64,000 bases of DNA from Desulfobacterales bacterium (GCA_040771865.1 JAXGZF010000003.1:186001-250000); one strand, 5' to 3'; positions 1 to 61,816 are shown, numbered from the stretch's first letter. A program made the numbers and translations. Notes: a model not told the origin generated them from the letters alone.

Positions 1-113
1 GGTGATAGGGGGGACCCGAGCGTAGCGAGCGGTCCGCCCTATCAGCTAGTTTTTAGCATTCGTTTCACAAGCAATCATAAACCTGGAGTTTTTAACGCAC
101 CGGTGATATTGTA

Positions 114-2285: not shown

Positions 2286-2508
2286 TTTCATTCCTCCGAT
2301 TGTTATCCATTCGTCCTGTAACGTAACATCATAACGTATCATTTATTTCTTTCTTTCCCTTTTGGCCGCATGAGGAATGCGATCTTTGTTTCATCTTTGT
2401 GCTTTTTTGCTATCTTCATATAGTGCGAGCCGGACCAGCGCAGAGCCGCTGTCGGATTGCAGCATCACTGAGTCGTGTTCTTTTCCTGTTTGTTTACAAA
2501 TGTGGCCG

Positions 2509-3582
2509 TTATTCGGTGTTTCCTGACAGAATCCATTGGATATCCGTGTCAGACAATTCATACTCGAAAAAACGGCGGTAAAAATTGCGCACCTCCTCCT
2601 CCATACTGATGTGCCTGAATCTGTCGGGAAAAAATTTTGTCGCCGCCCATAAAACGGTCAAGGGCTGCTCGACAGTTCTTTGACCCCAAGAATGAACACC
2701 CATCGGCATGGAATATACCCTCTTGTTCTGAACTGCATTGACCATCGAAATTCTCTTTTCCCGGTATATCCTTGCTGTTTGTTCCGGTGCGGATACGATC
2801 ATGATATCCGGATTCCACAGCAATACATGCTCATAAGAATAGCTGATGGTTCCGGTCCTTACGAATTTGGCTGTAACGCTCTGTCCTCCCGCTTCCTGTA
2901 TCCACCAGTCTGCTATGAGCCGAGGTGTGGTCATTGAGTTTGAGTTGAAAAAGAGCACTTTGGGCTTGGATGCCTCTGAAATGCCTTTCAAACTGCTGCG
3001 AACGCCATCCATTGTGGCTTCAAAGTAACGCAAGTACTCTTCGCTTCTCGGTGTTCGATCCAGAGCGCGGCCAAGCACACTCATGTTTGACTTGATATCG
3101 GATGCATCACTCCACTCAATATAGAGCACCGGAAGTCCTGCATTTTCCAAAGCCGGTATCCTGACTTTGTCCATGGTAATAACAACATCCGGACGAAGTA
3201 ATAGAAGGGCTTCTATGTTGACATCGCGATTTGACCCTTGCAGCATCGTTTGCCCGGCCAAGTGCGGTGCAATAACGGTCTGCAGCCTCCACTTCTTCGT
3301 CCGTGCGAAATGCGGGAGGCCGTTAACAATTTTTCTCCCCTCACCAAGAGCAAAAATATAACTGTTGATGACAGGAACCGGGCCGATGGTTGCGATGCGA
3401 TCGATTCTGCGCGGTACAGTCACTTTTCGGCCCGCCATGTCTGTAACGGAAACCGTCTGCGAGGGGATGACAGCAATGTGACCTTGGAATTCGACTGCCG
3501 CGGCTGCGCCATAACACATGCTGCAAACGCATCCCGCCAGTACCCATTTCCAGAAAACGGTCTTTGAATCGTTTTTCGGCAT
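2509..3582 (-). CDS. ABC transporter periplasmic binding protein (Fe-siderophore/cobalamin class)
   Basis: TDMAGRKVTVP..IDRI, NIEALLLLRPDVVI, VNAVQNKRVY motifs; signal peptide; GGAGGT RBS. Confidence 0.88.
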   Translation of the reverse strand: MPKNDSKTVFWKWVLAGCVCSMCYGAAAAVEFQGHIAVIPSQTVSVTDMAGRKVTVPRRIDRIATIGPVPVINSYIFALGEGRKIVNGLPHFARTKKWRLQTVIAPHLAGQTMLQGSNRDVNIEALLLLRPDVVITMDKVRIPALENAGLPVLYIEWSDASDIKSNMSVLGRALDRTPRSEEYLRYFEATMDGVRSSLKGISEASKPKVLFFNSNSMTTPRLIADWWIQEAGGQSVTAKFVRTGTISYSYEHVLLWNPDIMIVSAPEQTARIYREKRISMVNAVQNKRVYSMPMGVHSWGQRTVEQPLTVLWAATKFFPDRFRHISMEEEVRNFYRRFFEYELSDTDIQWILSGNTE

Positions 3583-4050
3583 TTAAACCTCCCGGAGATA
3601 GTGACCGCCACACGACTCCTTCAGCAACTCGGCAGCACTCAACGCGCATGCCCGTTCCCTGAAGCAGTTTTAACTAGATTGCGCCAAATTCGTTCCTCTG
3701 ATCATAACCCGGAGACGGATGCCATCTTGGTTCCATCCCCACAGGACTGATGCCGACGTATTTCAAGGCGAATCGCATTCTTGCGATTATTCTTGCACTT
3801 TTAAGTTGAGAACAGCTCGAATGATTCTCCATCGGAATTCCGTCGTTCTTACTAAGCCGATTATAAGTGTATGGACGATATTTTCAAGCTTCGAGTACAT
3901 TTAAATACAATAATATCAAGTATTTAAAACAAACTACATGTCTATAAACTTATGATCTCCTTAGTATTTGTTTTGCGTCGGTTGGTAATCGCTTTTTTTC
4001 ATGCAGTCCATCCTTACAAAGAAATAGACGGGTTGCCCTTCAGTCCGTTT

Positions 4051-4899
4051 TTATTTTTTCTGATCAATGACTATACGTTCGGCTGATTTCCCGTAAAAGT
4101 GGTAGCCGGAACCGGCTTCGGACAGCGTATCGAGCAACCTGTCCGGATCGGTCACCGAGATACCGCCGATCGCCTTTATTCCGCGGCTGAAAAAAGCTTC
4201 CGGAAGCATACTGGCTGTCGGGCCAACCAAGATCGCTTCCGTACTGCCTTGCATCTGTCTAAGGATGTCTTCAAGTGTGTTGTTGATTAGTGTAGTGCCG
4301 GTAATGATCAGCAGGTCGGCGGATGCGATGCATTCTCGGGCCTTTTCCTGCGGGCAAAAATACGGCATCTCATCCGCTTTGAGCGTGCGGGGATCTTTTT
4401 CCAAGATATGGAATGGTTGTCCGCGCGTCTTGAGCAGACGGATATAGGGTACAAGGGCGCCGATAACGACCACCTTGGCATCGTCGGAGATAATCAAGTT
4501 TTCAACCGGATCAGCGCCTATTTTCAAATTGTAATCGGCGGGATGGTTGTTGCGCCAGCACGTAGAGGAAAGGGCGTTGAGTACCGCAATCCCCAGAGCC
4601 TTTTGTAATGGACCGCCATTCTGCAACCGATCGATATATTCCGCAACCGGTTGCCCAGCTAATTTCCCGGAGTTAGGCATCGCTCGCGCTGAACTCGGGC
4701 AACAGACCGCTTCGGGAATCTCTTTGACAGGCGTAAAACAGATGCCGCCTTCACCGTTGGACAGCTTTACGCCGGAGAAGAATATCCCGATTACGGCTCT
4801 TTGCACATTGATGGTCTCCATCTTCGGTCCGATGATGAACCGGAGACGGGCCGCCGTTTCCATTAATATTTCATCTTGAAAAACTCGCCCTGATTTCAA
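4051..4899 (-). CDS. DUF364 (Rossmann-like) domain protein
   Basis: KALGIAVLNALS, ADLLIITGTTLINNTLE, LVGPTASM motifs typical of DUF364. TTG start at 4899 follows GGAGG. Confidence 0.8.
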   Translation of the reverse strand: MKSGRVFQDEILMETAARLRFIIGPKMETINVQRAVIGIFFSGVKLSNGEGGICFTPVKEIPEAVCCPSSARAMPNSGKLAGQPVAEYIDRLQNGGPLQKALGIAVLNALSSTCWRNNHPADYNLKIGADPVENLIISDDAKVVVIGALVPYIRLLKTRGQPFHILEKDPRTLKADEMPYFCPQEKARECIASADLLIITGTTLINNTLEDILRQMQGSTEAILVGPTASMLPEAFFSRGIKAIGGISVTDPDRLLDTLSEAGSGYHFYGKSAERIVIDQKK

Positions 4900-4924
4900 T
4901 TGCGGCCTCCTTTTTGTTGGATAA

Positions 4925-5998
4925 TCAGCGGCAACAGCCAGAAGATGGAGATGAACATTCCGGCTGTTGCGATTCCTTGACAGCCAGGTGCAGACGCGAA
5001 GAGCCGAAATTGCATGGTAAAACAGATTTGGAGAGTATCTTGAATCCATTTTTATAAAAAAGCTTATCAAATTCTTCTACATGACAGAGAGGATGTCCGA
5101 AACTCCGCATCGCTTTTGACAATTCCTGGACGCCGCTGTTGATCAATTCACATCCCGGGGCACAGAACCAGTGGTTGGTGACCAGTAATCCTCCGGGATT
5201 GAGGGAGGAGCAGACCTTGCCGAAGACCTCTTCAAGGCATTTTCGAAACTGGTAAAACAGATGAGAAACAATGACGATATCAAACCCGGAGCCCGAGCCG
5301 TCGCTGCCGATATCACCAGTCTGAGCAGACAGACGGTCTTCCATTTGATTGTCCTTGATATAACGTATCGTGTTTTCGATAAGATGCGGTCTGTCAAGGA
5401 CAGTGCCATTAAGGTGAGGATGAGTCTGGCACAGGGCGATGGCATACAGCCCGTTTTCCCCACCAAGATCCAGCAGGCTTTTGGCGCTATAAAAGCCGTC
5501 CCAGTTCGAGACGGCTTCCGTTATGAATTGCAGCTCTCCCCGCAAGGCTCTGCGACCGCAGGCGTCCATGAAAGATGCGCTGCCGGCTTCATGGAATTTG
5601 TCTGCTGCCGGCTGTTCGCAACGCAGAGTCCCCGATAAATTGTTCCAGTGAGAATCCTCTCTGGCTTTTTGCACAAAGTTTCCCTGAAAAAACGGGCTGC
5701 GAGTGATGAGAAAATCAGTAGTTGCTTTGGTGTTTGCATATTGTTCCCCGTTTCTGGACAAAAAACCCATATCTACTAGAGTGCCGAAATAATCTCTGGA
5801 GAACATTCCGTTGATGCCTATCCCCTGAACAATTTTATTTCTGTCGCTGGGTCCTTCAGTATCTATGAATTCAAATAATCCCAGGTCCAATGCAGCCAGT
5901 AAGGCTTGATAGGTCTGATAGCCTTCGATGATGCGGTCTATTTTTTCTATGCCGTTCGGCAACCGCAAGTTCATTAATGAGATTCCTTTAATAGACAT
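4925..5998 (-). CDS. SAM-dependent O-methyltransferase-like protein with N-terminal dimerisation domain
   Basis: ALDLGLFE dimerisation motif, LLDLGGENG SAM motif, FDIVIVSH, LNPGGLLV; Cys-rich tail CSSPSSGCCR. Confidence 0.82.
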   Translation of the reverse strand: MSIKGISLMNLRLPNGIEKIDRIIEGYQTYQALLAALDLGLFEFIDTEGPSDRNKIVQGIGINGMFSRDYFGTLVDMGFLSRNGEQYANTKATTDFLITRSPFFQGNFVQKAREDSHWNNLSGTLRCEQPAADKFHEAGSASFMDACGRRALRGELQFITEAVSNWDGFYSAKSLLDLGGENGLYAIALCQTHPHLNGTVLDRPHLIENTIRYIKDNQMEDRLSAQTGDIGSDGSGSGFDIVIVSHLFYQFRKCLEEVFGKVCSSLNPGGLLVTNHWFCAPGCELINSGVQELSKAMRSFGHPLCHVEEFDKLFYKNGFKILSKSVLPCNFGSSRLHLAVKESQQPECSSPSSGCCR

Positions 5999-6024
5999 TG
6001 TTACCCCTCTTGAGTGCTTGATGC

Positions 6025-6680
6025 TTAGTTTAATGAGATTATGCTATGATAAACAAACTTACTCATAACAAGCCACAGGCCGATATCGTCGCCGTGTAAA
6101 ATGGAAAAGGAATCAATACCGGCCGTCTGCAGCGCCGTCTCGAACCGGCTGCGGGTTTCAGGACCCAGATTTCGGCGCACTTTGTTTCGGAATTGCTCGT
6201 TTCTCTGGTTGCGGGATGACATTTCACGTTCTATGGATTCTTTCAATTCCCGAGACCCAAAGTCTCCACCGATATAAGCCCACCCACGGGGGGCCAGCAC
6301 CCGGTGAATCTCCCGAAAGGCCTGGGTCAAATCTTCCCAGAGAAAAACTGATCCTCGGCTGACGGCCAGATTCACGGATTCGTCCGGAAGACCAATGCCC
6401 GTGGCATCCCCCTGTAGCGTGTCGGACCTTTCCTGCAGGTTGTTTTGCACAATTGCCCGTTTGGCTATGGCGAGCATTTCTTCCGACCGGTCGAAAAAGT
6501 GGATAAACAATTTGCTGAACCGGGCCAACGCTGCGCCCAGATAACCCTATCGCAGCCGACATCCATACAGATCCCTTGGGTGACGCCGGTATGTGTGATG
6601 ATCTGGTCTGCAATGAGCGGGTAAACGGGTGTAAAAACCGTACAGGCGATGTAATCAAATTTTTCAGCGTCGATTTCCAT
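6025..6680 (-). pseudogene. Class I SAM methyltransferase, frameshifted in the SAM-binding motif
   Basis: N-part MEIDAEKFD...CMDVGC (ATG 6680) continues in another frame as GYLGAALARFSK...LAPRGWAYIGG. One base appears missing at ~6546-6549 (gat ag_ ggt tat). Confidence 0.8.
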
Positions 6681-7024
6681 GTAAATTCCTTTCGATTTAT
6701 CAGCGCGCTTCCCTGTGGAATATCCCGGGATGTGACGGCAATGGCGGTCAAATTCCCTATGCGCTGCCAAGTAATGTAATTTATAAACATAATATGTCTG
6801 CTAAAACATACATAGTTTGGTGTCATAAATTACGATTTTTGAAAAGTCAACCTAAAATTTGGCTCAGGAGATAATGGTGAACCGGGACCGGCTGGACGGA
6901 TTTTTCGGCAAAATCTTCCCAGGATATTGCGCGGGTCTTTGAAAAGTTGAAAACTGAATTGATTCAGCTTGAAAAACAGACAATCAAATGATGTATCTTG
7001 GCCAAGCGAATCCCAAAAGCAAAA

Positions 7025-7207
7025 CTTTCCAGAAAGGGAATCAGCGGGGTTGGCGAAAAAGAGGTTGAGATGAAACAGGGGGATACGATGTTCGTCCCGC
7101 GCGGCGCGGTCCACTGGTTTTACAATCCGTTTCCGGAGCCGGTCGAGATGCTGTTCGTCTATACGAGGCCGTCGTTGAAATCGGCCGGGTATCGAATCGT
7201 CGAGTGA
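7025..7207 (+). pseudogene. C-terminal fragment of a cupin-domain protein
   Basis: LSRKGISGVGEKEVEMKQGDTMFVPRGAVHWFYN contains cupin motif 2 (GDxxxxPxGxxHxxxN); motif 1 and a credible start are absent. Confidence 0.6.
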
Positions 7208-7239
7208 AAAGCCCTCGCCGGGCGACGGAGGATCGAAAA

Positions 7240-7440
7240 ATGCAAGAAGAAACCGTCCGATGTCCGGAATGCGGCTCGAATGAAATCGTTTCAATTGTAT
7301 ACGGTTATCCGTCCAAGGAACAATTCGAGGCCGAGGATCGGGGCGAAATTGCCTTGGGCGGTTGCTCGGCGGATGTCTTGAGACCGGTCTGGCAGTGCAA
7401 AAACTGCCGGCACATGTTCGGGAGGATGATGTGGAAATGA
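7240..7440 (+). CDS. Small zinc-ribbon protein (66 aa)
   Basis: CPECGS...IVYGYP...LGGC...WQCKNC; GGAGG RBS at 7227. Confidence 0.75.
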   Translation: MQEETVRCPECGSNEIVSIVYGYPSKEQFEAEDRGEIALGGCSADVLRPVWQCKNCRHMFGRMMWK

Positions 7441-8121
7441 GAAACCATGTGCCTGGATCGTATAGAATAGCCTTCCACGGAAAATGTATCCCTTGATGTC
7501 GGAACAAGAAGGTTTATAGGAAATATTTTGCGCCACAAAAGCACCACAAATATTCATCAATTCATTTTGTTGGCCTGAAAATACATATTTCAAAATGTAT
7601 TGGCATGAACCAATACCAAGAACAACCAGAAACGGAAAATAGAGGGCTTGATATCTTTTTCAAATTTTTACAACGAAAAGCAGTGGCATCATAACTTTGA
7701 CAGGAAGGCCCCGGTTGTGGTTTACTTCGATTCAATATATAAAAAACAGACTTCGGCATGAACATGAATCCAGGGCAGTTTCACACTTATAAATTCCTGT
7801 TTCCTGTCTGAAGAGACCAGACCACCTCTCTGTGATGAACACCCGATCCTGCTTAAGGTGTGAAGAATTCCGCATTTTCCGGAGTAAAAAAATGGAGTAG
7901 AAAAAGGGAGCGTCTATTGTTCTTATTTTACAATGACTGAGATTGACCAGCGTTCCGCCGAACAGGTCATGACGATCAATTAAAAATCCCTTCTCATATT
8001 TCAATTCATTTGATAACTTTCATTTTTGTTTCTTTGCCTGACAAAATCCATTGGGAACCGGAGCGTCCATTCCGTTCTGTTGAAAAGGATCCGAGGCCGG
8101 TTCCGGCGTCAAGGAGTAAAG

Positions 8122-24924: not shown

Positions 24925-27402
24925 ATGAACATACCGAATCCCGAACTCCGGCTGGCCGAGGAATTTGTCCGGCACACCAACTGCAATATTTTTCTTACAG
25001 GCAAGGCAGGCACCGGCAAGACCACCTTTCTGCATGACATCCAAAAAAAGACCCGCAAGCGGATGGTGGTGACGGCCCCGACCGGCGTTGCCGCTATCAA
25101 TGCCGGCGGCGTCACCCTGCATTCCTTTTTTCAGCTGCCGTTCGGTCCATTTGTCCCCGGCGGCGAAGCATTCATCGGCCAGCACAGAATCCGGAGGGAG
25201 AAACAGAACATCATCCGGAGCCTTGATCTTTTGGTCATCGATGAAATCAGCATGGTCCGGGCCGACCTGCTCGATGGCGTGGACAGCGTCCTGCGGCGCT
25301 ACCGCCGCAACGAGCTGCCTTTCGGAGGGGTGCAACTGTTGATGATCGGCGACCTGCAGCAACTCTCACCGGTGGCCAAGCGCGATGAATGGCGGATCCT
25401 GCAAGAATATTACGATTCACCATATTTTTTCAGCAGCGCCGCGCTCGGCCGGACCGAGCTGATTCCCATAGAACTCAAGCACATCTACCGCCAGTCGGAC
25501 CGTCACTTCATCGAACTCCTTGGCTGCGTCCGTGACAACCGGCTCGATCCCCCCACCCTTGAAAAGCTGAATTCCCGCCATATCCCGGATTTTTCCCCGG
25601 GGGACGGGGATGGATACATTACCCTGTGCACCCACAACAGGGGCGCCGACACCATCAACGAAGCTAGGCTCAACGCTCTGCCTGGTAAAAGGCGCTGTTT
25701 TGATGCCGAACTGGGGGGTGATTTTCCGGAGCACGCCTATCCGACCGCCGGCGCCCTGGAAATCAAGATTGGAGCGCAGGTCATGTTCGTCCGCAATGAC
25801 ATGTCGGCCGAGAAACGCTACTTCAACGGCAAAATCGGCAAAATCACAGGGCTGTCGAGTGATGCCATCGAGGTGCGCTGCCCGGGGGATTCGGACAAGA
25901 TCACGGTGGAGAAAACCACCTGGGAAAATATCGAATACGCCGTCGATCCGAAAACCGCCGAGATTTCGCAAAAGGTCATTGGCACGTTCAGCCAATACCC
26001 CCTGAAACTGGCCTGGGCCATCACGATCCACAAGAGCCAGGGACTCACCTTCGACCGGGCGATCATCGACGCCCAGGCCGCCTTCGCCCACGGCCAGGTG
26101 TATGTGGCCCTGAGCCGCTGCCGGAGCTTCGAGGGAATGGTGCTCAGCTCGCCGCTGAGCGCACAGGCCGTGAAAACCGACCACACCGTTCAGAGATTCG
26201 TGAGGAACCTGGCCGGTCAGGCGCCGTCGCCGGAAAAAGTCACGGCCGAGAAAACCCGCTACCAGCGGCAGCTGATGCTGGCGTGTTTCAGTTTCGAGGG
26301 ACTGAATCGGTTGCTCGGCCGCCTGACGGGGCTTTTCTGCGGCAATTCCGGCGTGATTCATGTCTCGGGTGTGGGCGATATCATGGAGATGCAAAAACGG
26401 GCGGCGGCGGAGATCTGTGCCATCGGCGAAAAATTCAAGGCTCAGCTTCAGGGAATGTTCACCGATGACGCTCAAACAGCCGATGATCCTGTAATCCTGG
26501 AGAGGCTCGCCAAGGCATCCCGCTATTTTCAGGAAAAGTTCGATACGATCCTCTTGCCTTATCTTGAGAACATCGCGGTGGAGACGGACAACAAGGAAAT
26601 TCGAAAGAAAATCAACGATGCCCTCAAGCATCTGAGAGAGGAAACCGCGGTGAAGCTGACCGCGGTACGATCCTGCCAGGACGGATTTTCACCGGAAAAG
26701 TATCTCCGGTCGATTTCGGCCGCGGTTATGGACGTCGGGAAGGCGAAGCCGAAAACCCGAACCGGCATCTATTTCGAGGAGGACGTGGGCCACCCCGAAC
26801 TATTCGAAAGCCTGCGGAAATGGCGCAAACGGAAGGCTGCCGAGGAAGGAATCGCTCATTACCGGGTCCTGCACCAAAAAACGCTGGTGCAGATCGCGGT
26901 CCGCCTGCCCGATTCCATTTCCGCCCTGAAAAAAATCAAGGGCATCGGCAAGCGCCTGGCCGAGAGATACGGCGAAGAGCTTGTGAATATGGTGGCCGAC
27001 TATCTTCGGAAGCACGGGATTGAAGGAACGGCCCCGCCCGAACCGGCGACTATCGAGCCCCCGGAAGGGCCGAAAGCGCGGCCAACAGGGAGCCGGGACA
27101 CCAGGAAGCTCAGCCTTGAATTATTCGATCGGGGGCTTTCCATTCTCCAGATCGCCGCTGAGCGGAAACTGACAGCCTCCACAGTCGAGGGGCACCTGGC
27201 ATTTTTCGTTTCAAAAGGCGAACTTGAAATCGGCCGGGTGCTTCAGGATGAAAAGCGGCGGATCATAGAGCAAAAAATCTCAGAAATGCCGGGAACGCCA
27301 TTGAAGGAGCTGAAAACGGCCCTCGGAGATGCGTATTCCTACGGTGAAATCAAATTGGTCCTCGCCCACCTCGAACAACAACAAGGGGCGTTTGGGCATT
27401 GA
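24925..27402 (+). CDS. PIF1/RecD-like SF1B helicase with HRDC and C-terminal HTH domains
   Basis: TGKAGTGKTT, DEISMV, GDLQQL, LAWAITIHKSQG, YVALSR; HRDC LFESLRKWR..KIKGIGKR; HTH IAAERKLTASTVEGHL. Confidence 0.93.
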   Translation: MNIPNPELRLAEEFVRHTNCNIFLTGKAGTGKTTFLHDIQKKTRKRMVVTAPTGVAAINAGGVTLHSFFQLPFGPFVPGGEAFIGQHRIRREKQNIIRSLDLLVIDEISMVRADLLDGVDSVLRRYRRNELPFGGVQLLMIGDLQQLSPVAKRDEWRILQEYYDSPYFFSSAALGRTELIPIELKHIYRQSDRHFIELLGCVRDNRLDPPTLEKLNSRHIPDFSPGDGDGYITLCTHNRGADTINEARLNALPGKRRCFDAELGGDFPEHAYPTAGALEIKIGAQVMFVRNDMSAEKRYFNGKIGKITGLSSDAIEVRCPGDSDKITVEKTTWENIEYAVDPKTAEISQKVIGTFSQYPLKLAWAITIHKSQGLTFDRAIIDAQAAFAHGQVYVALSRCRSFEGMVLSSPLSAQAVKTDHTVQRFVRNLAGQAPSPEKVTAEKTRYQRQLMLACFSFEGLNRLLGRLTGLFCGNSGVIHVSGVGDIMEMQKRAAAEICAIGEKFKAQLQGMFTDDAQTADDPVILERLAKASRYFQEKFDTILLPYLENIAVETDNKEIRKKINDALKHLREETAVKLTAVRSCQDGFSPEKYLRSISAAVMDVGKAKPKTRTGIYFEEDVGHPELFESLRKWRKRKAAEEGIAHYRVLHQKTLVQIAVRLPDSISALKKIKGIGKRLAERYGEELVNMVADYLRKHGIEGTAPPEPATIEPPEGPKARPTGSRDTRKLSLELFDRGLSILQIAAERKLTASTVEGHLAFFVSKGELEIGRVLQDEKRRIIEQKISEMPGTPLKELKTALGDAYSYGEIKLVLAHLEQQQGAFGH

Positions 27403-27411
27403 TATATTGAT

Positions 27412-27526
27412 TGAAAGACAGGCGGTCTGGTTTTTCCCGACTGGTAATCGGAATTTGCAAAGGGGGAAACCGCAGCCCGTTCCAGCCATAGCGAAGCAAA
27501 AAAACTACAGCTTGGCCTTCCGGGTC
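27412..27526. repeat. Diverged ~115-bp direct repeat, copy 2
   Basis: Colinear with 20919-21032. Confidence 0.8.
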
Positions 27527-27764
27527 CGGAAAAACCATGCCGGCCAAACGCCTGCCCCTGTCCTGCCGCCGTTGAGCTTTGAAGCCATCGAAACAACCCG
27601 CTTTCATTTTATTGAAAAACAGTATATGGAAAAAAATTTAAAAGGCTTCAACAGGCTTGTCCGTCAGCCTTGAATTCAGGATCGTTTCCGTTATTCGGCT
27701 TGAAATCAGATGCGTCGTTCAAGGCCGGGCAACCGGACCGATTCATGGAAAGGAAAATATTGTG

Positions 27765-29882
27765 ATGACATATCAGGGCCGAATGAATTGCGGGGAACTG
27801 CAGATTTCCGATGCCGGGCGGGAGGTCCGTCTCGCAGGGTGGGTGGACGCCCTGCGGGATCACGGCGAGGTGCTGTTTATTCACCTGCGCGATCGAAGCG
27901 GAATCGTGCAGGTGGTGATCAGCCCGGAATTCGCTTCCCAGGAAGTCTGTCTGGCGGCCGCCGGGCTGAAAAACGAATACTGCATTTCCGTGCTCGGCCG
28001 CGTGGTCCGGCGCGAACCGGGAACCGAAAACCCGTATATTGAAACCGGCGGCATTGAGGTGATGGCCCTGGATCTGAACATACTGAGCTCTTCGGCCCCC
28101 CTGCCGTTTTCCATCACCGAAAAGGCCATGGTCGCCGGAGGCGGGGCGAGAGCCGCGGACCCGGTGGCGGAAGACATCCGGCTTCAGTACCGATACCTGG
28201 ATCTGCGGAGGCCGACCATGCAGAACCATCTGATCAAGCGCCACCGGATCAACAAGGCCATCCGGGACATGCTCGACGAACGCGGGTTCATTGAGATCGA
28301 AACCCCGATGCTCACTCGAAGCACGCCGGAAGGGGCCCGCGATTACCTGGTTCCCAGCCGGGTCCATCCCGGCGCTTTTTATGCGCTGCCGCAGTCTCCC
28401 CAGCTGTTCAAGCAGCTGCTCATGGTCAGCGGGTTCGAACGGTATTACCAGATTGTCCGGTGCTTCCGGGATGAGGACCTTCGGCCCAACCGCCAGCCCG
28501 AGTTCACCCAGCTCGACTTGGAAGCCTCCTTCATCGACGAGGAGTTCATCTATGAAATGATCGAGGAACTGGTGTCGCGGCTGTTTGCGATCGGCGGCAT
28601 CGAATTCGCCCGGCCTTTTCCGCGCATGACCTATCAGGAAGCCATGGACAGCACGGGTTCGGATCGTCCGGATCTGAGATTCGGAATGTTTTTCGTCGAT
28701 GCCACGGACATTTTTTCCGATACCGGCTACAGCATCTTCAGGCAGATTCTCCGCAGAGGGGGCGCCATTCGCGGCATCAACGTCAAGGGCCAGTCTGAAC
28801 AGCTGAGCAAAAACGTGCTTCAGAACGAATACGCCAAGGAAATCGTGCCCGGATTCGGCGCCAAGGGAATGACCTGGATGCGGGTGATCGACGGGGGCCT
28901 GGAGTCCAATATCGTTCAGTTTTTTTCCGAAAAAGAGCGGCAGGCGATTCTCAGCCGTTTTCAAGCCGAAAACGGCGACGTTATTCTGATGATCGCCGAT
29001 TCCTCCCGCGAGGTGGTCCTCTCGGCCCTGGGACAGCTGCGGCTTCATCTGGCTCACCGGCTCAACCTCATTCAGCCGGACCGGTTCTGCCCGTTGTGGG
29101 TTACGAATTTTCCGCTTTTCAAGGCCTCCGAAGAGGGAATCGTCTCCGAACATCACCCCATGACCGCTCCGGATCGTACGGACTTCGACCCCGCGAATAC
29201 CGAGCAGCTTCTCGGGCTGACGTCCAGGGCATATGACCTGGTGGTCAACGGCGAGGAGCTTGGCGGGGGCAGCATCCGCATTCATGAAAAGGAAACCCAG
29301 CACAAGATTTTCAAGGCCCTTGGGTTGTCCGAGGAGGAGATTCAGGAGAAGTTCGGCTTCTTTCTGGAGGCATTTGAATACGGTGCGCCGCCCCACGGCG
29401 GCCTGGCCCTGGGCATGGACCGGGTGGTCTCCATGATTCTGGGAACCGCTTCCATTCGTGAGGTCATTGCCTTTCCCAAGAACCGGAGCGCCTTTTGCCC
29501 CCTGACCAAGGCCCCGGCCGGCGTGGCCCGGGAGCAGCTGGCCGAACTGGGCCTGCTGGATTCGGGGGGTGAAAAACAGCTCCCTGGCCAGAGTGCGCAA
29601 TCGGACCGGATCGATTCCCTGTCCTGGGTTTCCCGAATCGGGGTTTCAGAAAAGGAGCGGCCGGTGATCACTGAGGCCGTTGACGCGGCCGTTCGCATGG
29701 CCGAAATCGTATCCGGGCGGGCCGGAGCGGAGCCGCCCATGTTTTCCCCCGGCGCCGGAACCGGCCGGAACCGGATTGATTCAAAGCCCGCGGTCAGTCC
29801 CTTTGCCTCCCGGGGCGAGGTGCTCAAAAATGCGCCGGCGGTCAAGAGCGATTTTTTCAAGGTCGCCAATATTCTGGAATGA
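27765..29882 (+). CDS. aspS: Aspartate--tRNA(Asp/Asn) ligase fused to a C-terminal GatC-like domain
   Basis: RDHG, RLQYRYLDLRR, STPEGARDY, LPQSPQLFKQ, FRDEDLR, GGGSIR, HGGLALGMDR, IAFPKN; then ~95 extra aa ending VLKNAPAVKSDFFKVANILE. Confidence 0.93.
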   Translation: MTYQGRMNCGELQISDAGREVRLAGWVDALRDHGEVLFIHLRDRSGIVQVVISPEFASQEVCLAAAGLKNEYCISVLGRVVRREPGTENPYIETGGIEVMALDLNILSSSAPLPFSITEKAMVAGGGARAADPVAEDIRLQYRYLDLRRPTMQNHLIKRHRINKAIRDMLDERGFIEIETPMLTRSTPEGARDYLVPSRVHPGAFYALPQSPQLFKQLLMVSGFERYYQIVRCFRDEDLRPNRQPEFTQLDLEASFIDEEFIYEMIEELVSRLFAIGGIEFARPFPRMTYQEAMDSTGSDRPDLRFGMFFVDATDIFSDTGYSIFRQILRRGGAIRGINVKGQSEQLSKNVLQNEYAKEIVPGFGAKGMTWMRVIDGGLESNIVQFFSEKERQAILSRFQAENGDVILMIADSSREVVLSALGQLRLHLAHRLNLIQPDRFCPLWVTNFPLFKASEEGIVSEHHPMTAPDRTDFDPANTEQLLGLTSRAYDLVVNGEELGGGSIRIHEKETQHKIFKALGLSEEEIQEKFGFFLEAFEYGAPPHGGLALGMDRVVSMILGTASIREVIAFPKNRSAFCPLTKAPAGVAREQLAELGLLDSGGEKQLPGQSAQSDRIDSLSWVSRIGVSEKERPVITEAVDAAVRMAEIVSGRAGAEPPMFSPGAGTGRNRIDSKPAVSPFASRGEVLKNAPAVKSDFFKVANILE

Positions 29883-29970
29883 CGGGTGCAAACCGCTCGT
29901 CATTTTTTGCGGATTTTTGACAAATCAATTTCAAAAAATTGAATTCAAAAGGATTTTGAAAGGCCTATAT

Positions 29971-31164
29971 ATGGATGCCGAACTCTTTGCCCATCTGAAT
30001 CCATCGGCCGAGGCGGCCTCGGACGGGCCGCTTGCGGGAAAAACCCTGGTCGTCTGGCCCAGCATATCCGTCCGGGGATGGCCGGCCGAGGCGGGTTCGA
30101 CCGCGTTGAAAGGCTTTGCGGCCCTTGAGGACGCCACGATGGTCGAGCGCCTGAAAAAGGCCGGCGCCGTTCTGGCCGGAAGTTCGCGAATGAGCGAACT
30201 GGGTTTCGGCCTGGCCGGGGATACGGCGGCTTTGATTCTGGATCAGGGAGGCGCCGATGCGGCCCTGGTGGTGGACGCCATGGGCGAGGCGCGCGCGGCC
30301 GCGGCCCGTGTCCGCCGGTTCGGATTCAAGCCCACCCACGGAATGATTTCCAGATGCGGCCTCATCGGTCTGATCCCCTCCATGGAAAGCGCCGGAATTC
30401 TGGCGGACTCGCCGGCGGACATCTCTCGAATCCTGGCTTGCATGGCCGGGCTCGACGAACGCGATCCTTCCATGCTGGAACGGCCGGCGCCCGATTTTCC
30501 CCGGACATCGGAAGCGCGCGGAGTGGTCGGCGTGATTCAGGAAAGCGAAGAAAAGCTCTCCCCTGAGGCATCGGCCGGATTTCAACAGGCCCTTTCAAAG
30601 CTGGAAAGCCGCGGATTTCGAATCGTCCGGACCGGACTGGCCGATTTCGAACTGTTTTCGACCGTTCACAATGTCGTCGGGTCGGTCGAGGCCTCTTCGA
30701 GCTGCGGAAAATACGACGGGGTCCGTTACGGTTACCGGGCGGCCGGCGCCAAAAACTGGAATGAGATGTACATTCGAACCCGGGCTGAATCCTTCGGCCT
30801 TCTAGTAAAATCCTATCTTTTTCAGGGCGCCTACTTCCAGTTTGAAAACTACGGCGCCTTTGAGAACGCCTGCCGGATTCGCCGCCGTCTGGTCGAGGGG
30901 ATCGAGGGAATTTTCAAAACCGTGGACATGCTCGCCTTTCCGGCTCTGAACCGCGAATGCAGGGCGGATGAGGCCCGAAGCATCGAATCGGTTTACGATG
31001 CGTTTGCGCTGACCCTTCCGGCCAACGTGACCGGGCATCCGGCGCTTCAGGTTCCGGGTCTGGCCGTGGATTCAAAGCAGGATTTCGGGCTTCAACTGGT
31101 CGGACCCTACGGCTCGGATGCCGGGCTTCTCAACCTGGCTGACCGGATGCTTGCCGATCGCTGA
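29971..31164 (+). CDS. gatA: GatA-like amidase-signature protein lacking catalytic residues
   Basis: GPLAG, DATMVERL, GFKPTHG.ISR.GL, KYDGVRYGYR, TLPANVTGHPAL, GLQLVG retained; Lys/cis-Ser/Ser triad absent. Confidence 0.85.
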   Translation: MDAELFAHLNPSAEAASDGPLAGKTLVVWPSISVRGWPAEAGSTALKGFAALEDATMVERLKKAGAVLAGSSRMSELGFGLAGDTAALILDQGGADAALVVDAMGEARAAAARVRRFGFKPTHGMISRCGLIGLIPSMESAGILADSPADISRILACMAGLDERDPSMLERPAPDFPRTSEARGVVGVIQESEEKLSPEASAGFQQALSKLESRGFRIVRTGLADFELFSTVHNVVGSVEASSSCGKYDGVRYGYRAAGAKNWNEMYIRTRAESFGLLVKSYLFQGAYFQFENYGAFENACRIRRRLVEGIEGIFKTVDMLAFPALNRECRADEARSIESVYDAFALTLPANVTGHPALQVPGLAVDSKQDFGLQLVGPYGSDAGLLNLADRMLADR

Positions 31165-31226
31165 GAAGGGCATGCAACCTGGAATGAAAATGCCCGGGGT
31201 CGCTTTCATATAAAGGAATAACGGTT

Positions 31227-32660
31227 ATGAATTTTGAAGCGGTTATCGGTCTGGAGATACACGTTCAGCTGTCCTGCGCCACCAAGCTGTTCTGCGACTG
31301 CCCCAACAGTCCGGGCGACGCTCCCAACATAAACACCTGCCCCATCTGCCTGTGGCTCCCCGGCGCGATCCCCCGGCTGAGCGAAGAGGCCGTGGAAAAA
31401 GCGGCCATGGTCTGCCTGGCGCTGAACTGCCGAATTCAGAATGAAAGCGCATTTGACCAGAAGGTCTATTATTACCCGGACCTGCCCAAGGGATACCAGC
31501 TTTCCCAGCATCACAGGCCTCTGGGGAAAAACGGATGGCTGGAGGTGGCCGGAGCGGACGGAAATTCCAGGCGGCTGCGGATTCATCACATTCACATGGA
31601 AGAAGACGTGGCCAAGCTGGTGCATGAGATCGAGGGCCGAACGCCGATCAGCCTGGTGGATTTCAACCGGGCCGGAACCCCGCTGGTGGAAATCGTGACC
31701 GAGCCCGACATGCGAAGCTCCCAGGATGCGATGGGCTTTCTGCGGGCCCTGCGCGCGCAGATACGCTACACCGGCAGTGCGGAATGCAGCATGGAACAGG
31801 GCTCCATGCGGGTGGACGCCAACATATCGATCCGTGAAAAGGGAAGCGATCAGTTGAACACCAAGGTGGAGGTCAAGAACATGAACTCCATTCGAAACGT
31901 CTGCGATGCCATTGACTATGAAATCCACCGTCAGATCGCCTGCGTCCAGTCGGGGGAGCCGATCGTTCTGCATACGCGGCTCTGGGACCCGGACAAACAT
32001 GTCACCACGGCCATGCGCGGCAAGTTCGCGGGCCCCTGCATTCCGGACCCGTCGGTTCCGCACATCCTCATTACCGAAACCCGGCTTCAGCAGTTAAAGG
32101 AGAAACTTCCGGAGATGCCGGATCAGAAAGCCCGCCGTTTTGTTCAGGACTACGCCCTTCCTCAGGAAACCGCCGCCCTGATGAGCGCGGAAAGAGATCT
32201 TTCGGAGTATTTCGAGGCGGTGGTCAGGCTGGGGCCGTCTTCAAAGACAGCGGCCTACTGGATTTCCGCCCACCTGTTGCCCGCCATGAAGGACCATGGA
32301 CAGAATCCGGCCGACGCCCGGGTGACTCCCGAACGCCTGGCCGGGCTTCTCGTCATGCTTGAAAAAGACGAGATCAATGCCGGTTCGGCCAAAAGCGTTC
32401 TTTCGCAGATGTTTGAAAACGATCAGGCCCCTGAACGGATCGTCGAGCAATCCGGTTTCCGTCAGGTTTCCGATGCGGATGAACTTCAGGACATCGTTCT
32501 CTCGGTTATCGAGAAGAATCCTTCGGCCGTCGAAAACTATCGAAACGGAAAAACCCAGGCCGTGGGTTTCCTGATGGGACAGGTCATGCGGGCCACTCAG
32601 GGCAAGGCTAATCCCAAAAGGGTTCAGGAGATTCTTCAGAAAGCGCTGGCGGCCTTGTAG
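31227..32660 (+). CDS. gatB: Asp-tRNA(Asn)/Glu-tRNA(Gln) amidotransferase subunit B (divergent)
   Basis: VIGLEIHVQL, YYPDLPKGYQ, HMEED, DFNRAGTPLVEIVTEPD, KVEVKNMNS, YqeY tail GFLMGQVMRATQGKANP. Confidence 0.93.
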   Translation: MNFEAVIGLEIHVQLSCATKLFCDCPNSPGDAPNINTCPICLWLPGAIPRLSEEAVEKAAMVCLALNCRIQNESAFDQKVYYYPDLPKGYQLSQHHRPLGKNGWLEVAGADGNSRRLRIHHIHMEEDVAKLVHEIEGRTPISLVDFNRAGTPLVEIVTEPDMRSSQDAMGFLRALRAQIRYTGSAECSMEQGSMRVDANISIREKGSDQLNTKVEVKNMNSIRNVCDAIDYEIHRQIACVQSGEPIVLHTRLWDPDKHVTTAMRGKFAGPCIPDPSVPHILITETRLQQLKEKLPEMPDQKARRFVQDYALPQETAALMSAERDLSEYFEAVVRLGPSSKTAAYWISAHLLPAMKDHGQNPADARVTPERLAGLLVMLEKDEINAGSAKSVLSQMFENDQAPERIVEQSGFRQVSDADELQDIVLSVIEKNPSAVENYRNGKTQAVGFLMGQVMRATQGKANPKRVQEILQKALAAL

Positions 32661-32687
32661 CGGTTTGGATCATTTCGCCGTTCAAAG

Positions 32688-32730
32688 GAATCCCCCTGCC
32701 AAAACGAGACAGGGGGGATTCTGCGTTTTT
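32688..32730. terminator. Hairpin terminator between convergent gatB and nspC
   Basis: GAATCCCCCTG...CAGGGGGGATTC followed by T-rich tail. Confidence 0.7.
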
Positions 32731-32736
32731 CAGAAT

Positions 32737-33897
32737 TCAGGAAAGCCGGTTCCGGTAATCTTCGTATCCGAAGGTTCGAATGATCCGGACCTTCCCGGTC
32801 CGCGAGTTGAACACGCCGATCGAGGGCAGGCGAATGCCGTTGAAGGTATTGTTTTTCACCATGGTGTAGTGGGCCATGTCCAGAAAGATCAGTTTGTTTC
32901 CTGCCTCAAGCGGCCGGTCAAAGGAATAGTCCCCGATCACGTCTCCGGCCAGGCAGCTCGGTCCGGCCAGTCGGAAGGTGTGGGCCCGTTTTTGCGGCTC
33001 GCCGCCGCCGATGATTTCCGGACGGTAGGGCATTTCCAGAACATCGGGCATGTGGGTGGCTGCCGAGGCGTCCAGAATGGCGATCCGCATCCGGTTTTCC
33101 ACGACATCCAGAACCGAGGACACGAGAATTCCGGTGTTCAGGGCGACGGCCTCGCCGGGTTCCAGATAGACGTCCACGCCGTAGCGGGCCTTGAAATTCA
33201 CAATCATTCGGCAGAGCGCCTCGACGTCGTATCCGGGTTTGGTGATGTGATGGCCGCCTCCGAAATTCACCCATTTCAGGCCCTTGAAGAATCCGCCGAA
33301 TTTCTTTTCCACCGCGCCAAGCACCCGTTCCAGGACCCCGGCATCCTGTTCGCACAGGCAGTGAAAGTGCAGGCCGCAGATGCCCTCCAGGGCGTCCGGT
33401 TCAAAGTGGTCCAGCGTGACGCCGAGCCGCGAACACGGGTAGCACGGGTCGTAGATGGGTGTTGCGACCTCGGAGTATTCCGGGTTGATGCGGATGCCGC
33501 ATTCGATCGGGCGGGGGGCATTTTTCAGAAACGCCCGAAGCCTTCGGTACTGGGAAAAGGAGTTGAACACGATGTGATCGGCGTATTGAATGATTTCCTG
33601 AAAATGGGCATCGCTGTATCCGGGCGCGCAGACATGCACCTCTTTGCCGAACTCCTCAAAGGCCAGGCGGGCCTCGTCGAGCGAACTGGCGCTGGCCCCG
33701 GCCAGATACCGGCGGATCAGGGGGGCGAAGTGCCACATGGCAAAGCCCTTGAGGGCCAGAAGAATCCTGCATTCGGCGGTTTTCTGAACCGAATCTAGAA
33801 TTTTCAGATTGTCTTCCAGGGCGACCTCGTCCACCAGATAACAGGGGGTCGGCACGTCCTCGAGACGGATGTTGAAATGCGTCCGGGTCATCGTCAT
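32737..33897 (-). CDS. nspC: Carboxy(nor)spermidine decarboxylase
   Basis: LALKGF (PLP Lys), YDPC..SRLG, NFGGGHHIT, EPGEA, HMPDVLEMPY, CLAGD, HYTMVKNNTFNG. Confidence 0.95.
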   Translation of the reverse strand: MTMTRTHFNIRLEDVPTPCYLVDEVALEDNLKILDSVQKTAECRILLALKGFAMWHFAPLIRRYLAGASASSLDEARLAFEEFGKEVHVCAPGYSDAHFQEIIQYADHIVFNSFSQYRRLRAFLKNAPRPIECGIRINPEYSEVATPIYDPCYPCSRLGVTLDHFEPDALEGICGLHFHCLCEQDAGVLERVLGAVEKKFGGFFKGLKWVNFGGGHHITKPGYDVEALCRMIVNFKARYGVDVYLEPGEAVALNTGILVSSVLDVVENRMRIAILDASAATHMPDVLEMPYRPEIIGGGEPQKRAHTFRLAGPSCLAGDVIGDYSFDRPLEAGNKLIFLDMAHYTMVKNNTFNGIRLPSIGVFNSRTGKVRIIRTFGYEDYRNRLS

Positions 33898-33901
33898 TCC
33901 G

Positions 33902-35131
33902 CTAATTCAGGGGATTAAAGGCGTCTGCGATTCCGGCGAAATAGTCCTTTTCAGGATCCAGATCCTGTTCGTGCCAGGGCAGGCCGTGCTGGTTGAGCTT
34001 TTCCATGAAGGGATCCGGATCGAACTCCTCCACGTTGAAAACCCCGGTTCCGCGCCAGACGCCGGTGGCCGCCATCATGGCGCCGATCATGGCCGGAACG
34101 CCGGTGGTGTAGGAAATCGCCTGGGCGCCGATCTCCCGAAAGCACTCGGCGTGATCGCAGACGTTGTACACATAGTACTGCCGCTTTTTTCCGTCCCGAA
34201 TCCCGTTGATCAGGCATCCGATATTGGTCTTTCCGCTGTAAGTGACGCCCAGGGAACCGGGATCGGGCAGAACCGCCTTGAGAAACTTCAGCGGAACGAT
34301 CTCACGCCCCTCGTAGAGCACCGGATCGATCCGGGTCATACCCACGTTTTCGAGGACCCTCAGATGGGTCAGATATTCCTGGCCGAAGGTCATCCAGAAC
34401 CGGATGCGCCGGACGCCCCTGATGTTTTTGGACAGGGATTCGAGCTCCTCATGGTACAGAAGATAGCTTTCCCTGGGTCCGATCCGGGGGTAGTCAAAGG
34501 GCAGATGAACGGACATGGGGTCGATTTCGATCCATTTTCCGTTTTCAAAGTACTTGCCGCGCTGGGTGATTTCCCGAATATTGATTTCCGGATTGAAGTT
34601 GGTGGCAAAGGGATGCCCGTGGCTGCCGGCGTTGCAGTCCAGAATGTCGATGGTATGGATGGTGTCGAACTTGTGCTTCTGGGCGTGGGCGCAGAACACG
34701 TTGGTCACGCCGGGGTCGAAACCGCAGCCCAGAAGCGCCATGATGCCCTTTGCCCGGAACCGGTCCTGATAGTCCCACTGCCACTTGTAGCAGAACCGGG
34801 CCTCGTCGGGCGGTTCATAGTTGGCCGTATCCAGATAGTTGACCTTCGTTTCCAGACAGGCGTCCATGATGGCCAGATCCTGGTAGGGCAGGGCGACATT
34901 GATCACGATGTCCGGCCGGACGCTTCGAATCAGCTCGGCTGTCTGCCGGGGGTCATCCGCATCCACCTGGGCGATCTCGATGGGCCGGGAAATGCTTTTT
35001 TGAATTTTCTCGCATTTTTCCAGAGTCCGGCTGGCCAGACAGATTCGAGTGAAAACCTCTTTTGCCTGAGCGCATTTATGAGCCACCACGTTTCCGACGC
35101 CGCCGGCGCCGATGATCAAAACCGTGCTCAT
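33902..35131 (-). CDS. Carboxy(nor)spermidine dehydrogenase (saccharopine dehydrogenase family)
   Basis: IIGAGGVG, NVALPYQDL, YLDTANYEP, GFDPG, FATNFNPEINIRE, AISYTTGVPA; adjacent to nspC. Confidence 0.93.
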   Translation of the reverse strand: MSTVLIIGAGGVGNVVAHKCAQAKEVFTRICLASRTLEKCEKIQKSISRPIEIAQVDADDPRQTAELIRSVRPDIVINVALPYQDLAIMDACLETKVNYLDTANYEPPDEARFCYKWQWDYQDRFRAKGIMALLGCGFDPGVTNVFCAHAQKHKFDTIHTIDILDCNAGSHGHPFATNFNPEINIREITQRGKYFENGKWIEIDPMSVHLPFDYPRIGPRESYLLYHEELESLSKNIRGVRRIRFWMTFGQEYLTHLRVLENVGMTRIDPVLYEGREIVPLKFLKAVLPDPGSLGVTYSGKTNIGCLINGIRDGKKRQYYVYNVCDHAECFREIGAQAISYTTGVPAMIGAMMAATGVWRGTGVFNVEEFDPDPFMEKLNQHGLPWHEQDLDPEKDYFAGIADAFNPLN

Positions 35132-35358
35132 GTTTCCCTCCCGCACTGATGCCTAATCGGTTGTTTCAAAAAGATTTTATGATTTTTATTTTTCACAGGC
35201 GGCCGGATTTTGCAACGAAAACGTTTACTGATTCAAGACTGCTTTGCGAAGATTTAAAAATGGCGGCAGCTCTGATAAACCCGTTGACGAAGTGCTTTGA
35301 GCTGATTTAATGTGGAAAGTCAGTAATTTGATGCGTACAGGAGGGCGCTGCTGAATTC

Positions 35359-60128: not shown

Positions 60129-60486
60129 GCAGACTTTTCTGCAGCGAATCACAGCAATCTTGTTCGGTTGTTTTGAAATAACAAATGCGATACGTTTTTT
60201 AAGATGCGTGTTCCGTATTCAGTGCCGAAGCTTTTCGAAAGCATCGCATCAGGTGACCGAGAGCCTTGGAATCATGTCGCTAAACCTTATTCTTCAAAGC
60301 AAAACGGATAGTGCGTTCTGTTAAAAAAGGATACCGGTTCTTTTGGCGACGATAATTTGGCGGCACTGTTTTCTGGCACGGAAGAACAGGAACAATTGCG
60401 GGGAAAACGACGCGAAAGTGCAAGAAGGGTAGGATCGTCAACCTCTGAAAAAACCAAGATGATTGACTTCGGCTTTACGCGACCGG

Positions 60487-60687
60487 CTATCCGCCCAGTT
60501 GATTGGCCAGCGTCTTGATTTCATCGGCGATCTGGTTGAGCAATACTGAAACTCCCATGCTTTCCGACGGCGTCAGCGCCCTTTCCATGCCTCTGTCCTC
60601 TCGGTAAAGATCTGCCAGACCCTTGAGACGGGCGATTGGCGTGTACATGCTTAAAAAAACGGTTCTCGGATTTCTGATTTCCATCAT
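60487..60687 (-). CDS. Small hypothetical protein (66 aa)
   Basis: AAGGA RBS, helical sequence, preceded by a very AT-rich region. Confidence 0.45.
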   Translation of the reverse strand: MMEIRNPRTVFLSMYTPIARLKGLADLYREDRGMERALTPSESMGVSVLLNQIADEIKTLANQLGG

Positions 60688-61813: not shown

Positions 61814-61816
61814 TCC

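Follow-up and report, generated by a model that had tools for sequence, protein, structure and literature searches.

An operon encoding an AspRS–GatC fusion, a GatA predicted to be catalytically dead and a remodelled GatB: a candidate tethered, glutamine-independent transamidosome from a Desulfobacterales bacterium

tRNA-dependent amidotransferases (AdTs) are two-site enzymes, in which the ammonia released by a glutaminase travels along a tunnel to the tRNA-bound substrate. In the bacterial asparagine transamidosome, known from structures of the Pseudomonas aeruginosa (4wj3) and Thermus thermophilus (3kfu) complexes, the amidotransferase GatCAB is joined by an aspartyl-tRNA synthetase that is non-discriminating (ND-AspRS), together with tRNA(Asn); the known complexes assemble non-covalently and obtain their ammonia from an active GatA. 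Here we describe an operon built from the same protein families and domain set, which lies in a 64,000-nucleotide stretch of DNA from a Desulfobacterales bacterium (GCA_040771865.1, JAXGZF010000003.1:186001-250000; this whole stretch is referred to as the window). Its three genes encode an aspartyl-tRNA synthetase (AspRS) with a GatC-like C-terminal tail, a GatA that has lost its glutaminase site and a strongly diverged GatB. We propose that they constitute an asparagine transamidosome that is self-contained, held together by a covalent tether and no longer dependent on glutamine, a reading whose chances of being right or wrong we consider about equal.

A sequence-only reading of the window had placed three co-oriented genes here, beginning with an ATG at 27765. 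They are found as open reading frames (ORFs) within 27762-32660 on the plus strand, the first with a GTG start codon three nucleotides upstream of that ATG. The operon comprises the following features:

27762-29882, plus strand: aspS~gatC fusion gene (ORF including the stop codon, GTG at 27762; 706 amino acids)
29562-29879, plus strand: GatC-like C-terminal tail of the fusion (residues 601-706), with a short linker between it and the AspRS core
29883-29970, plus strand: spacer between the fusion gene and gatA' (88 nt; no Rfam match in 27200-32900)
29971-31164, plus strand: gatA', the pseudo-GatA gene (ORF of 397 amino acids)
31165-31226, plus strand: spacer between gatA' and gatB' (62 nt; bridged by one RNA-library contig)
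31227-32660, plus strand: gatB', a diverged GatB paralogue (ORF of 477 amino acids)

We refer to the proteins of this operon as AspRS', GatA' and GatB', and to the stand-alone housekeeping copies as canonical. The form of the operon found in the window, with its pseudo-GatA, is called type 2, and a sister form with an intact GatA, described below, type 1.

GatA' matches the Pfam family Amidase with 165.9 bits, while the GatA-specific profile TIGR00132 scores 225 bits, under its cut-off of 481.1, and is matched only at positions 148-459. The protein is 29% identical to the GatA of its own genome. Compared with the latter, the lysine of the catalytic triad is replaced by tryptophan, a 22-residue deletion takes out the GGSSGGS motif that holds the cis-serine, and the GGSIR motif, which holds the nucleophile, reads GEAR; moreover, about 40 N-terminal residues are absent, and with them the N-terminal helices. 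HMMER alignments to solved GatA chains agree on the loss of the triad. These changes are shared by the relatives of GatA': in a column survey of 81 of them against 20 canonical or type-1 GatAs, just 49 of the 176 canonical-invariant columns (28%) are kept, the triad lysine is glutamine in 94% of the rows, the serine-rich loop with the cis-serine is deleted in 100%, and the nucleophilic serine is a glutamate (Glu106) in 99%. The serine motifs occur in none of 94 ORF rows (some genomes being present twice), whereas GE[AVPS]R is found in 89 of them. The aspartate and arginine columns that correspond, by alignment, to glutamine-binding residues are lost as well; these residues are D418 and R334 in yeast GatA (in the accessible parts of PMC4027206) and D425 in Staphylococcus aureus GatA (likewise in those of PMC2811023). 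As claimed in the sequence-only reading, the glutaminase site is thus gone, and GatA', with neither a glutaminase nor a glutamine site, is predicted to be catalytically dead.

The amidase-signature fold, by contrast, appears to be kept. The structural model of GatA' (predicted local distance difference test, pLDDT, 76.6; predicted template modelling score, pTM, 0.83) has GatA chains or a GatA–GatC model as its nine best Foldseek matches, with template modelling (TM) scores of 0.76-0.82, and the closest solved chains belong to Asn-transamidosome complexes. AtzE–AtzG (6c62) is also among the fold matches (TM 0.73). The columns still common to GatA' and GatA are concentrated at residues 240-304. 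A Rosetta-stone check for longer, fused versions of GatA' yielded none at E <= 1e-40 among proteins of 696-2000 amino acids, which is weak evidence. One relative, P0001, which is 94% identical to the GatA' of the window, carries a 17-residue stretch that is out of register across the former nucleophile motif. It looks like the product of two compensating frameshifts, and the DNA of a close relative (locus L029) is free of such a shift.

GatB', the partner expected to carry out kinase and amidation chemistry, presents a different picture. It scores 520.5 bits with TIGR00133 (cut-off 314.8) and matches the Pfam families GatB_N, the cradle, with 339.7 bits and GatB_Yqey with 159.5 bits, at 42% identity to the canonical GatB of the genome. 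In 29 rows, no variation is seen at E10, H12, K79, Y81, K88, the HMEED motif, E155, N199 or S201. Judged by their place within the motifs, E10, H12, E125/E126, E155, N199 and S201 correspond to the ATP- and Mg-binding residues named in the accessible parts of PMC4027206. The catalytic core of GatB' is hence predicted to be intact, in line with the motif retention claimed in the sequence-only reading.

Outside this core, the description of GatB' as remodelled proved fair. We compared 76 type-2 rows with the 141 columns that show no variation among 22 canonical and type-1 GatBs: 88 of these columns are kept and 53 are changed in type 2, many of them to a fixed new residue. The changes include G43W, the replacement of ARKNYF by DQKVYY (A77D, R78Q, N80V and F82Y), by which the motif ARKNYFYPD is lost, that of HMEEDAG by HMEEDVA and that of QE by LH at positions 248-249. 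The motif DYRYFPDPDL is reduced to PC(V/I)PDPSV through deletion of D268-Y269 and the substitutions R270P, Y271C, D276S and L277V. Neither motif varies among the sampled canonical and type-1 GatBs, and in the 76 type-2 rows the changes in each are fixed or nearly so. In a tree of 20 type-2 (every fourth row plus that of the window), 4 type-1 and 18 canonical sequences, the type-2 GatBs form a clade with a support of 100, a long stem branch of 1.16 + 0.58 substitutions per site and short internal branches.

The synthetase part of the fusion is a bacterial-type aspartate–tRNA ligase (TIGR00459, 700.9 bits against a cut-off of 373.85) with the Pfam domains tRNA_anti-codon, tRNA-synt_2 and GAD. 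It keeps 158 of 196 canonical-invariant AspRS columns, and among solved structures 4wj3, the Asp/Asn ligase from the P. aeruginosa transamidosome, matches it best; by sequence, its synthetase core is intact. In a tree with 22 type-2 rows (every third row plus that of the window), type-1 and type-2 fused AspRSs group together in a single clade apart from 16 stand-alone AspRSs (support 100, with type 2 at 99), and the end branches of AspRS' are shorter than those of housekeeping AspRS, meaning that AspRS' is the more conserved of the two. Fused AspRSs have in common a 12-residue insertion, ISEKAMV, and an RDHG motif.

The latter may bear on tRNA specificity. His31 and Gly82/83 (P. aeruginosa numbering) reportedly mark non-discriminating AspRSs, and we take the histidine of RDHG to be this marker site. 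AspRS' has RDHG as well as the aligned glycine, and may be non-discriminating. While every fused AspRS has RDHG, the stand-alone AspRS reads RDLG in all three type-1 genomes examined; the other 13 stand-alone AspRSs, including that of the window's genome, have RDHG. If the histidine is indeed such a marker, type-1 genomes would divide the work between a discriminating stand-alone AspRS and a fused enzyme for tRNA(Asn).

These observations bear on one alternative to a glutamine-independent transamidosome. As the ammonia source is lost, the last step of the reaction could be lost as well, and the proteins could form a non-catalytic or kinase-only complex that sequesters or hands over tRNA(Asn) or Asp-tRNA(Asn), for instance in fidelity control; transamidosomes are known to shield mischarged tRNA (accessible parts of PMC2811023 and PMC9499178). 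We regard this as unlikely, given that all GatB catalytic residues are kept over 200+ species, which is hard to explain without catalysis, and that AspRS' is more conserved than the housekeeping enzyme.

Beyond the AspRS core, the fusion carries about 105 additional C-terminal residues, which the sequence-only reading had called GatC-like. This assignment holds, with a weak profile match: the Pfam GatC family (PF02686) scores 20.7 bits on residues 629-701 in a whole-protein hmmscan (cut-off 23) and 25.3 bits, flagged above the cut-off, in a six-frame scan of the genome. The tail is colinear with stand-alone GatC and with type-1 tails, with E32, P59, R71 and P92 invariant in 33 rows. Its end differs, reading KVASILE in type 2 and VPK(V/I) in GatC and in type-1 tails. 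Furthermore, NF009460, the NCBIfam entry for a bifunctional AspRS/GatC, spans the whole fusion, with residues 2-706 aligned to positions 18-723 of the 723-position profile, so that the fusion is of a kind already known to annotation. The score of 1216.2 bits is under the cut-off of 1379, which is reached by none of the genomes in a sample of 201 from the phylum.

To look at the assembly, the tail was modelled together with GatA' and residues 1-300 of GatB' in three runs. The median run has an ipSAE (interaction prediction score from aligned errors) of 0.93, compared with 0.61 for the best control; that mark is attained by 116 of 157 solved complexes but by just 2 of 215 mismatched pairs. At least 91% of the contacts are common to the runs, with a partner pLDDT of at least 81. 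In the model, the tail contacts GatA' residues 242-306, where most of the surviving GatA-like columns are located, as well as GatB' residues 267-281, which represent the remodelled motif. Much of the remodelling thus looks like co-adaptation of the three subunits, and a clamping of GatA' and GatB' by the tail is supported by the model.

That a synthetase can be wired to an amidotransferase in this way is also indicated by the type-1 operons. In the 201 genomes, which sample the phylum evenly, the full-length fusion occurs in six: two of type 2, namely the window's genome and G151, and four of type 1 (G030, G098, G067 and G189; loci L115-L118). In type 1, the fusion gene is followed by genes for GatA (616-638 bits) and then GatB (556-573 bits), which in all four cases are the sole copies in their genomes. 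The type-1 GatAs keep the lysine, GGSSGGS and GGSIR motifs (4/4), and DYRYFPDPDL is kept in type-1 GatB. As the type-1 fusion stands beside an intact GatA and a GatB that are the only copies in its genome, the covalent tether is a natural design that works. The hard-wiring inferred in the sequence-only reading is thus plausible on two counts, the complex model and the type-1 operons. We found no paper on a type-1 tethered transamidosome as a sole amidotransferase in the literature searched.

The type-2 module is widespread. When 8000 candidates were scored in a search with GatA', 993 proteins had E <= 1e-10; the 120 matches listed are 51-94% identical to GatA', have 379-417 amino acids with the exception of one partial sequence of 241, and bear labels such as Syntrophales and Desulfobacterales. 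A relative is encoded by 207 stretches in species-representative genomes, and 80 of these loci were kept for comparison. The gene order of fusion, gatA' and gatB' recurs in all 80, which is far beyond chance. With a single match covering at least 90% as the criterion, GatA' is covered in 80 of 80 loci and the downstream GatB' in 76, two of the remainder being cut by contig ends and two internal (L066, split; L095, partial). The upstream GatC-like tail is covered in 75 loci and partial in five, of which L055 and L081 are cut by the contig start, L056 lies 34 nt from a contig start, and L044 and L082 are internal. The AspRS core is covered in 64 loci; there are nine cuts by contig ends and three internal cases (L039, L068 and L082), and in four loci, where the contig begins within or just ahead of the tail, the core is absent.

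For 12 close pairs with unsaturated synonymous divergence (dS; a thirteenth pair is saturated), we determined the ratio of nonsynonymous to synonymous divergence (dN/dS). It amounts to 0.06-0.21 for the AspRS core, 0.05-0.25 for GatB', 0.12-0.25 for GatA' and 0.07-0.37 for the tail, indicating that all parts of the module are under selection. The view that the module is a decaying duplicate of a transamidosome operon can draw on the low share of canonical-invariant columns kept in GatA' (28%), on internal splits in 5 of the 80 loci and on the local register shift in P0001. It is already largely refuted by gene order and dN/dS, and we rate it as very improbable: in each of the 12 informative pairs, every part has a ratio well below 1, the proteins have a uniform length of around 400 amino acids, new motifs have become fixed, such as Glu106 in 99% of the rows, and the gene order is held in 80 of 80 loci. 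The random erosion against which the sequence-only reading was set is therefore not what the relatives exhibit, and its argument for selection over decay stands, with ratios of 0.05-0.37 and frames that are intact in most loci.

Several individual loci deserve mention. The cultured Syntrophorhabdus aromaticivorans UI has two copies of the whole module, L077 and L097, on two scaffolds, which differ from one another by a dS of 0.08-0.34 at a dN/dS of 0.07-0.20. In L081 (189-1887), about 1.7 kb lie between the GatC-like tail and gatA', a gap that in other loci measures about 10 to about 420 nt and mostly less than 100 nt. The contigs of L043, L044, L050, L067, L074, L085 and L100 are labelled outside Thermodesulfobacteriota, as Brocadiaceae, Nitrospirota/Nitrospiraceae, Nitrospinaceae, NC10 or Sumerlaeota, which could be due to horizontal transfer or mis-binning.

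As suspected in the sequence-only reading, the module is a paralogous system beside canonical genes. The window's genome (2.98 Mb, 98.3% complete) also encodes a stand-alone AspRS (802 bits), a gatC–gatA pair (84 and 647 bits) and gatB (599 bits), together with both AsnRS and GlnRS; canonical aspS, gatCAB and asnS are thus all present. A short class-II ORF was identified as EpmA. No asnB-family gene scores above the cut-off in this genome (best 81 bits) and asnA was not found, so transamidation is its only recognisable route to asparagine. There are one tRNA-Asn and one tRNA-Asp gene, the former directly downstream of canonical aspS and sharing its strand; this site lies beyond the window, at 192120-194008 of contig C4. 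A special tRNA for the module was considered and rejected, as the genome has no odd tRNA.

Most other carriers resemble the window's genome in this respect. Among 36 of them, whose completeness is not known, 32 have a canonical GatA and 34 at least two AspRSs, and in the 10 carrier genomes examined for GatB, a canonical GatB is found beside GatB' in all 10. Given these canonical copies, the module is an extra. A link to a missing asparagine synthetase or AsnRS was also considered, and there is no clear tie.

The coexistence of canonical GatA in 32 of 36 carriers allows for another possibility, in which GatA' is a placeholder or regulator and the ammonia comes from a glutaminase after all, by way of an exchanged canonical GatA or some other docked amidotransferase subunit. 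There is a precedent in Tse8, a GatA-like protein of P. aeruginosa that is reported, in the accessible part of a preprint (bioRxiv 10.1101/733030), to replace GatA in the complex. We nevertheless find such an exchange rather unlikely, because the type-2-specific end of the tail (KVASILE versus VPKV) and GatB' residues 264-277 appear co-adapted to GatA', because GatA' is under purifying selection (dN/dS 0.12-0.25) and because the three genes always travel together.

With asparaginyl-tRNA already covered by the canonical pathway, one may also ask whether the product is something other than Asn-tRNA(Asn), for example because the activated aspartyl group is passed to a nucleophile other than ammonia or because the aminoacyl-tRNA is destined for a non-ribosomal use. 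The very long stem branch of GatB' would fit such a change, as would the fixed His249 and Cys271 and the loss of DYRYFPDPDL, none of which is seen in type-1 GatB. Yet the operon has no conserved neighbour that encodes an additional enzyme or transferase, and the best flanking family, which is sensor-kinase-like, is found in only 8 of 80 loci; GatB' 267-281 is at the predicted interface with the tail, so that subunit co-adaptation explains the change more simply; the ATP/Mg residues and the tRNA-binding YqeY domain are kept; and the genome has a single tRNA-Asn, a single tRNA-Asp and no odd tRNA. A different product hence seems improbable to us. Its more specific version, with GatA' as a new entry or binding module that helps GatB' to channel activated aspartyl-tRNA to a non-ammonia nucleophile or into a non-ribosomal pathway, seems a little more improbable still; if true, it would represent a new tRNA-dependent amino-acid transformation that is hard-wired to its own synthetase.

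Our favoured reading, a tethered transamidosome that dispenses with glutamine, would work as follows. The AspRS part would charge tRNA(Asn) with aspartate, while the GatC-like tail, in accordance with the complex model, would clamp one GatA'–GatB' pair per synthetase protomer. GatA', which on sequence grounds should be unable to hydrolyse glutamine, would persist as a structural adaptor for GatC and GatB. GatB' would then phosphorylate Asp-tRNA(Asn) with ATP and amidate it with ammonia from solution to give Asn-tRNA(Asn). That the nitrogen donor is free ammonium, or another amine, as put forward in the sequence-only reading, is an inference. Such use of ammonia is chemically plausible, because AdTs work with NH4Cl once their glutaminase is bypassed; according to the accessible parts of PMC4027206, truncations that loosen the glutaminase site even raised the NH4Cl-dependent activity of yeast GatFAB. 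The module would run beside an ordinary glutamine-dependent ND-AspRS and GatCAB and would uncouple the supply of Asn-tRNA or asparagine from the glutamine pool, which would probably save one ATP per asparagine, the one otherwise consumed in glutamine synthesis. This would suit energy-limited anaerobes in ammonium-rich habitats, and the carriers, judged from the titles of their records, are anaerobes of sediments and digesters.

A number of points weigh against this reading. Because the window's genome has a complete canonical pathway, viability does not, as far as the present evidence goes, depend on the module, and among the 36 other carriers an asnB-family gene above the cut-off is present in 22 and AsnRS in 10. 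The 53 of 141 changes in GatB', including the gains of His249 and Cys271, could signal a different chemistry, and the 5 of 80 loci with internal splits in aspS or gatB' are possibly broken copies or assembly errors. As to the assembly, the Pfam GatC score of the tail (20.7 bits) is under the cut-off, the control lacking GatA' still reaches 0.61 in the complex model, and the pass of the model may reflect likeness to solved GatCAB complexes. Then there is the path of the ammonia: the column aligned with T175 of S. aureus GatA, which we take to be a tunnel-lining residue, is kept in only 63% of the GatA' rows and is alanine in the window, so that a preserved GatA-to-GatB tunnel is doubtful. Finally, Rfam and sigma-54 scans revealed no nitrogen-linked regulatory signal.

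With regard to expression, a single anaerobic-digester study with 4 RNA runs contributes 12 contigs (13 pieces) that are 95-100% identical to parts of all three genes, with partial cover over the operon and its flanks; DNA carry-over is possible. One of them, record 12 of run X6, spans the gatA'–gatB' spacer over 170 nt (31099-31268) with 0 differences. Together, these contigs weakly support transcription of the operon. Regulatory elements were sought as well. A leader RNA or riboswitch was rejected, with 0 Rfam matches at E <= 1 over 27200-32900, and no sigma-70-like promoter was found in 27200-33000. A sigma-54 promoter, as expected for nitrogen control, was likewise rejected: at least 9 of 11 positions are matched in 3 of 61 upstream regions and in 1 of 61 on the reverse strand.

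The surroundings of the operon in the window contain the following features:

24925-27402, plus strand: PIF1-like helicase (825 amino acids; HRDC and HTH_40 domains at the C-terminus), immediately upstream of the operon; not kept beside the module at other loci
32692-32716: GC-rich hairpin between gatB' and the downstream gene pair
32737-35146, minus strand: two convergent downstream genes for a pyridoxal phosphate (PLP) decarboxylase (Orn_DAP_Arg_deC) and a saccharopine-dehydrogenase-family protein

The downstream pair resembles two enzymes that make polyamines, carboxy(nor)spermidine decarboxylase and carboxy(nor)spermidine dehydrogenase. The G+C content is 0.47-0.49 at positions 1-8000 and 60001-62000 of the window and mostly 0.52-0.60 in the rest.

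If the proposed mechanism is correct, the module would be the first glutamine-independent member of its class, as far as we found, with a dead scaffold as the tunnel partner and free ammonia as the substrate. Together, type 2 and its intact type-1 sister would represent a natural covalently tethered transamidosome. They would open to testing the route of ammonia to GatB, the roles of GatA and GatC beyond catalysis, and the glutamine economy of energy-limited anaerobes such as syntrophs and the sulfate reducers of sediments and digesters. The analysis also flags proteins of more than 200 species that are now annotated as ‘GatA’, ‘amidase’ or ‘hypothetical’. As regards novelty, which the sequence-only reading had left unverified, the AspRS–GatC fusion is already named in NCBIfam (NF009460). 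No paper describing the fusion or the pseudo-GatA was found in the literature searched, with Sheppard and Soll (2008) on AdT evolution, which might bear on the question, lying outside it; neither the fusion nor the pseudo-GatA is mentioned in the accessible parts of PMC8762117, PMC9499178, PMC9437257 and PMC2330236.

How, then, does the module relate to known systems? Its closest relative is type 1, or the NF009460 form, with which it shares the clade of fused AspRSs, the ISEKAMV insertion, RDHG and the gene order; it differs from type 1 in its dead GatA, its diverged GatB, the altered end of its tail and the canonical set elsewhere in the genome. In its logic, it recalls carbamoyl-phosphate synthetase I, an ammonia-dependent enzyme that has kept an inactive glutaminase-like domain as structure, although this is an analogy only, as the families involved are not related. 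AtzE, for its part, is an amidase that is active on a new substrate and that lacks both a GatB and a synthetase partner. By its entry title, AtzE–AtzG (PDB 6c62) is a vestigial complex derived from GatA and GatC, and it resembles the module in that a GatA–GatC pair is kept outside its original role; here, however, it is the tRNA machinery that is kept, next to an inactive amidase. The yeast mitochondrial GatFAB (accessible parts of PMC4027206) is similar in that a non-standard GatC-type subunit scaffolds GatA and that NH4Cl is used when the glutaminase is bypassed, but its GatF is not fused to a synthetase and its GatA is active. Compared with the known Asn-transamidosomes, finally, the system in the window has its GatC fused to the synthetase and a GatA without catalytic or glutamine-binding residues.

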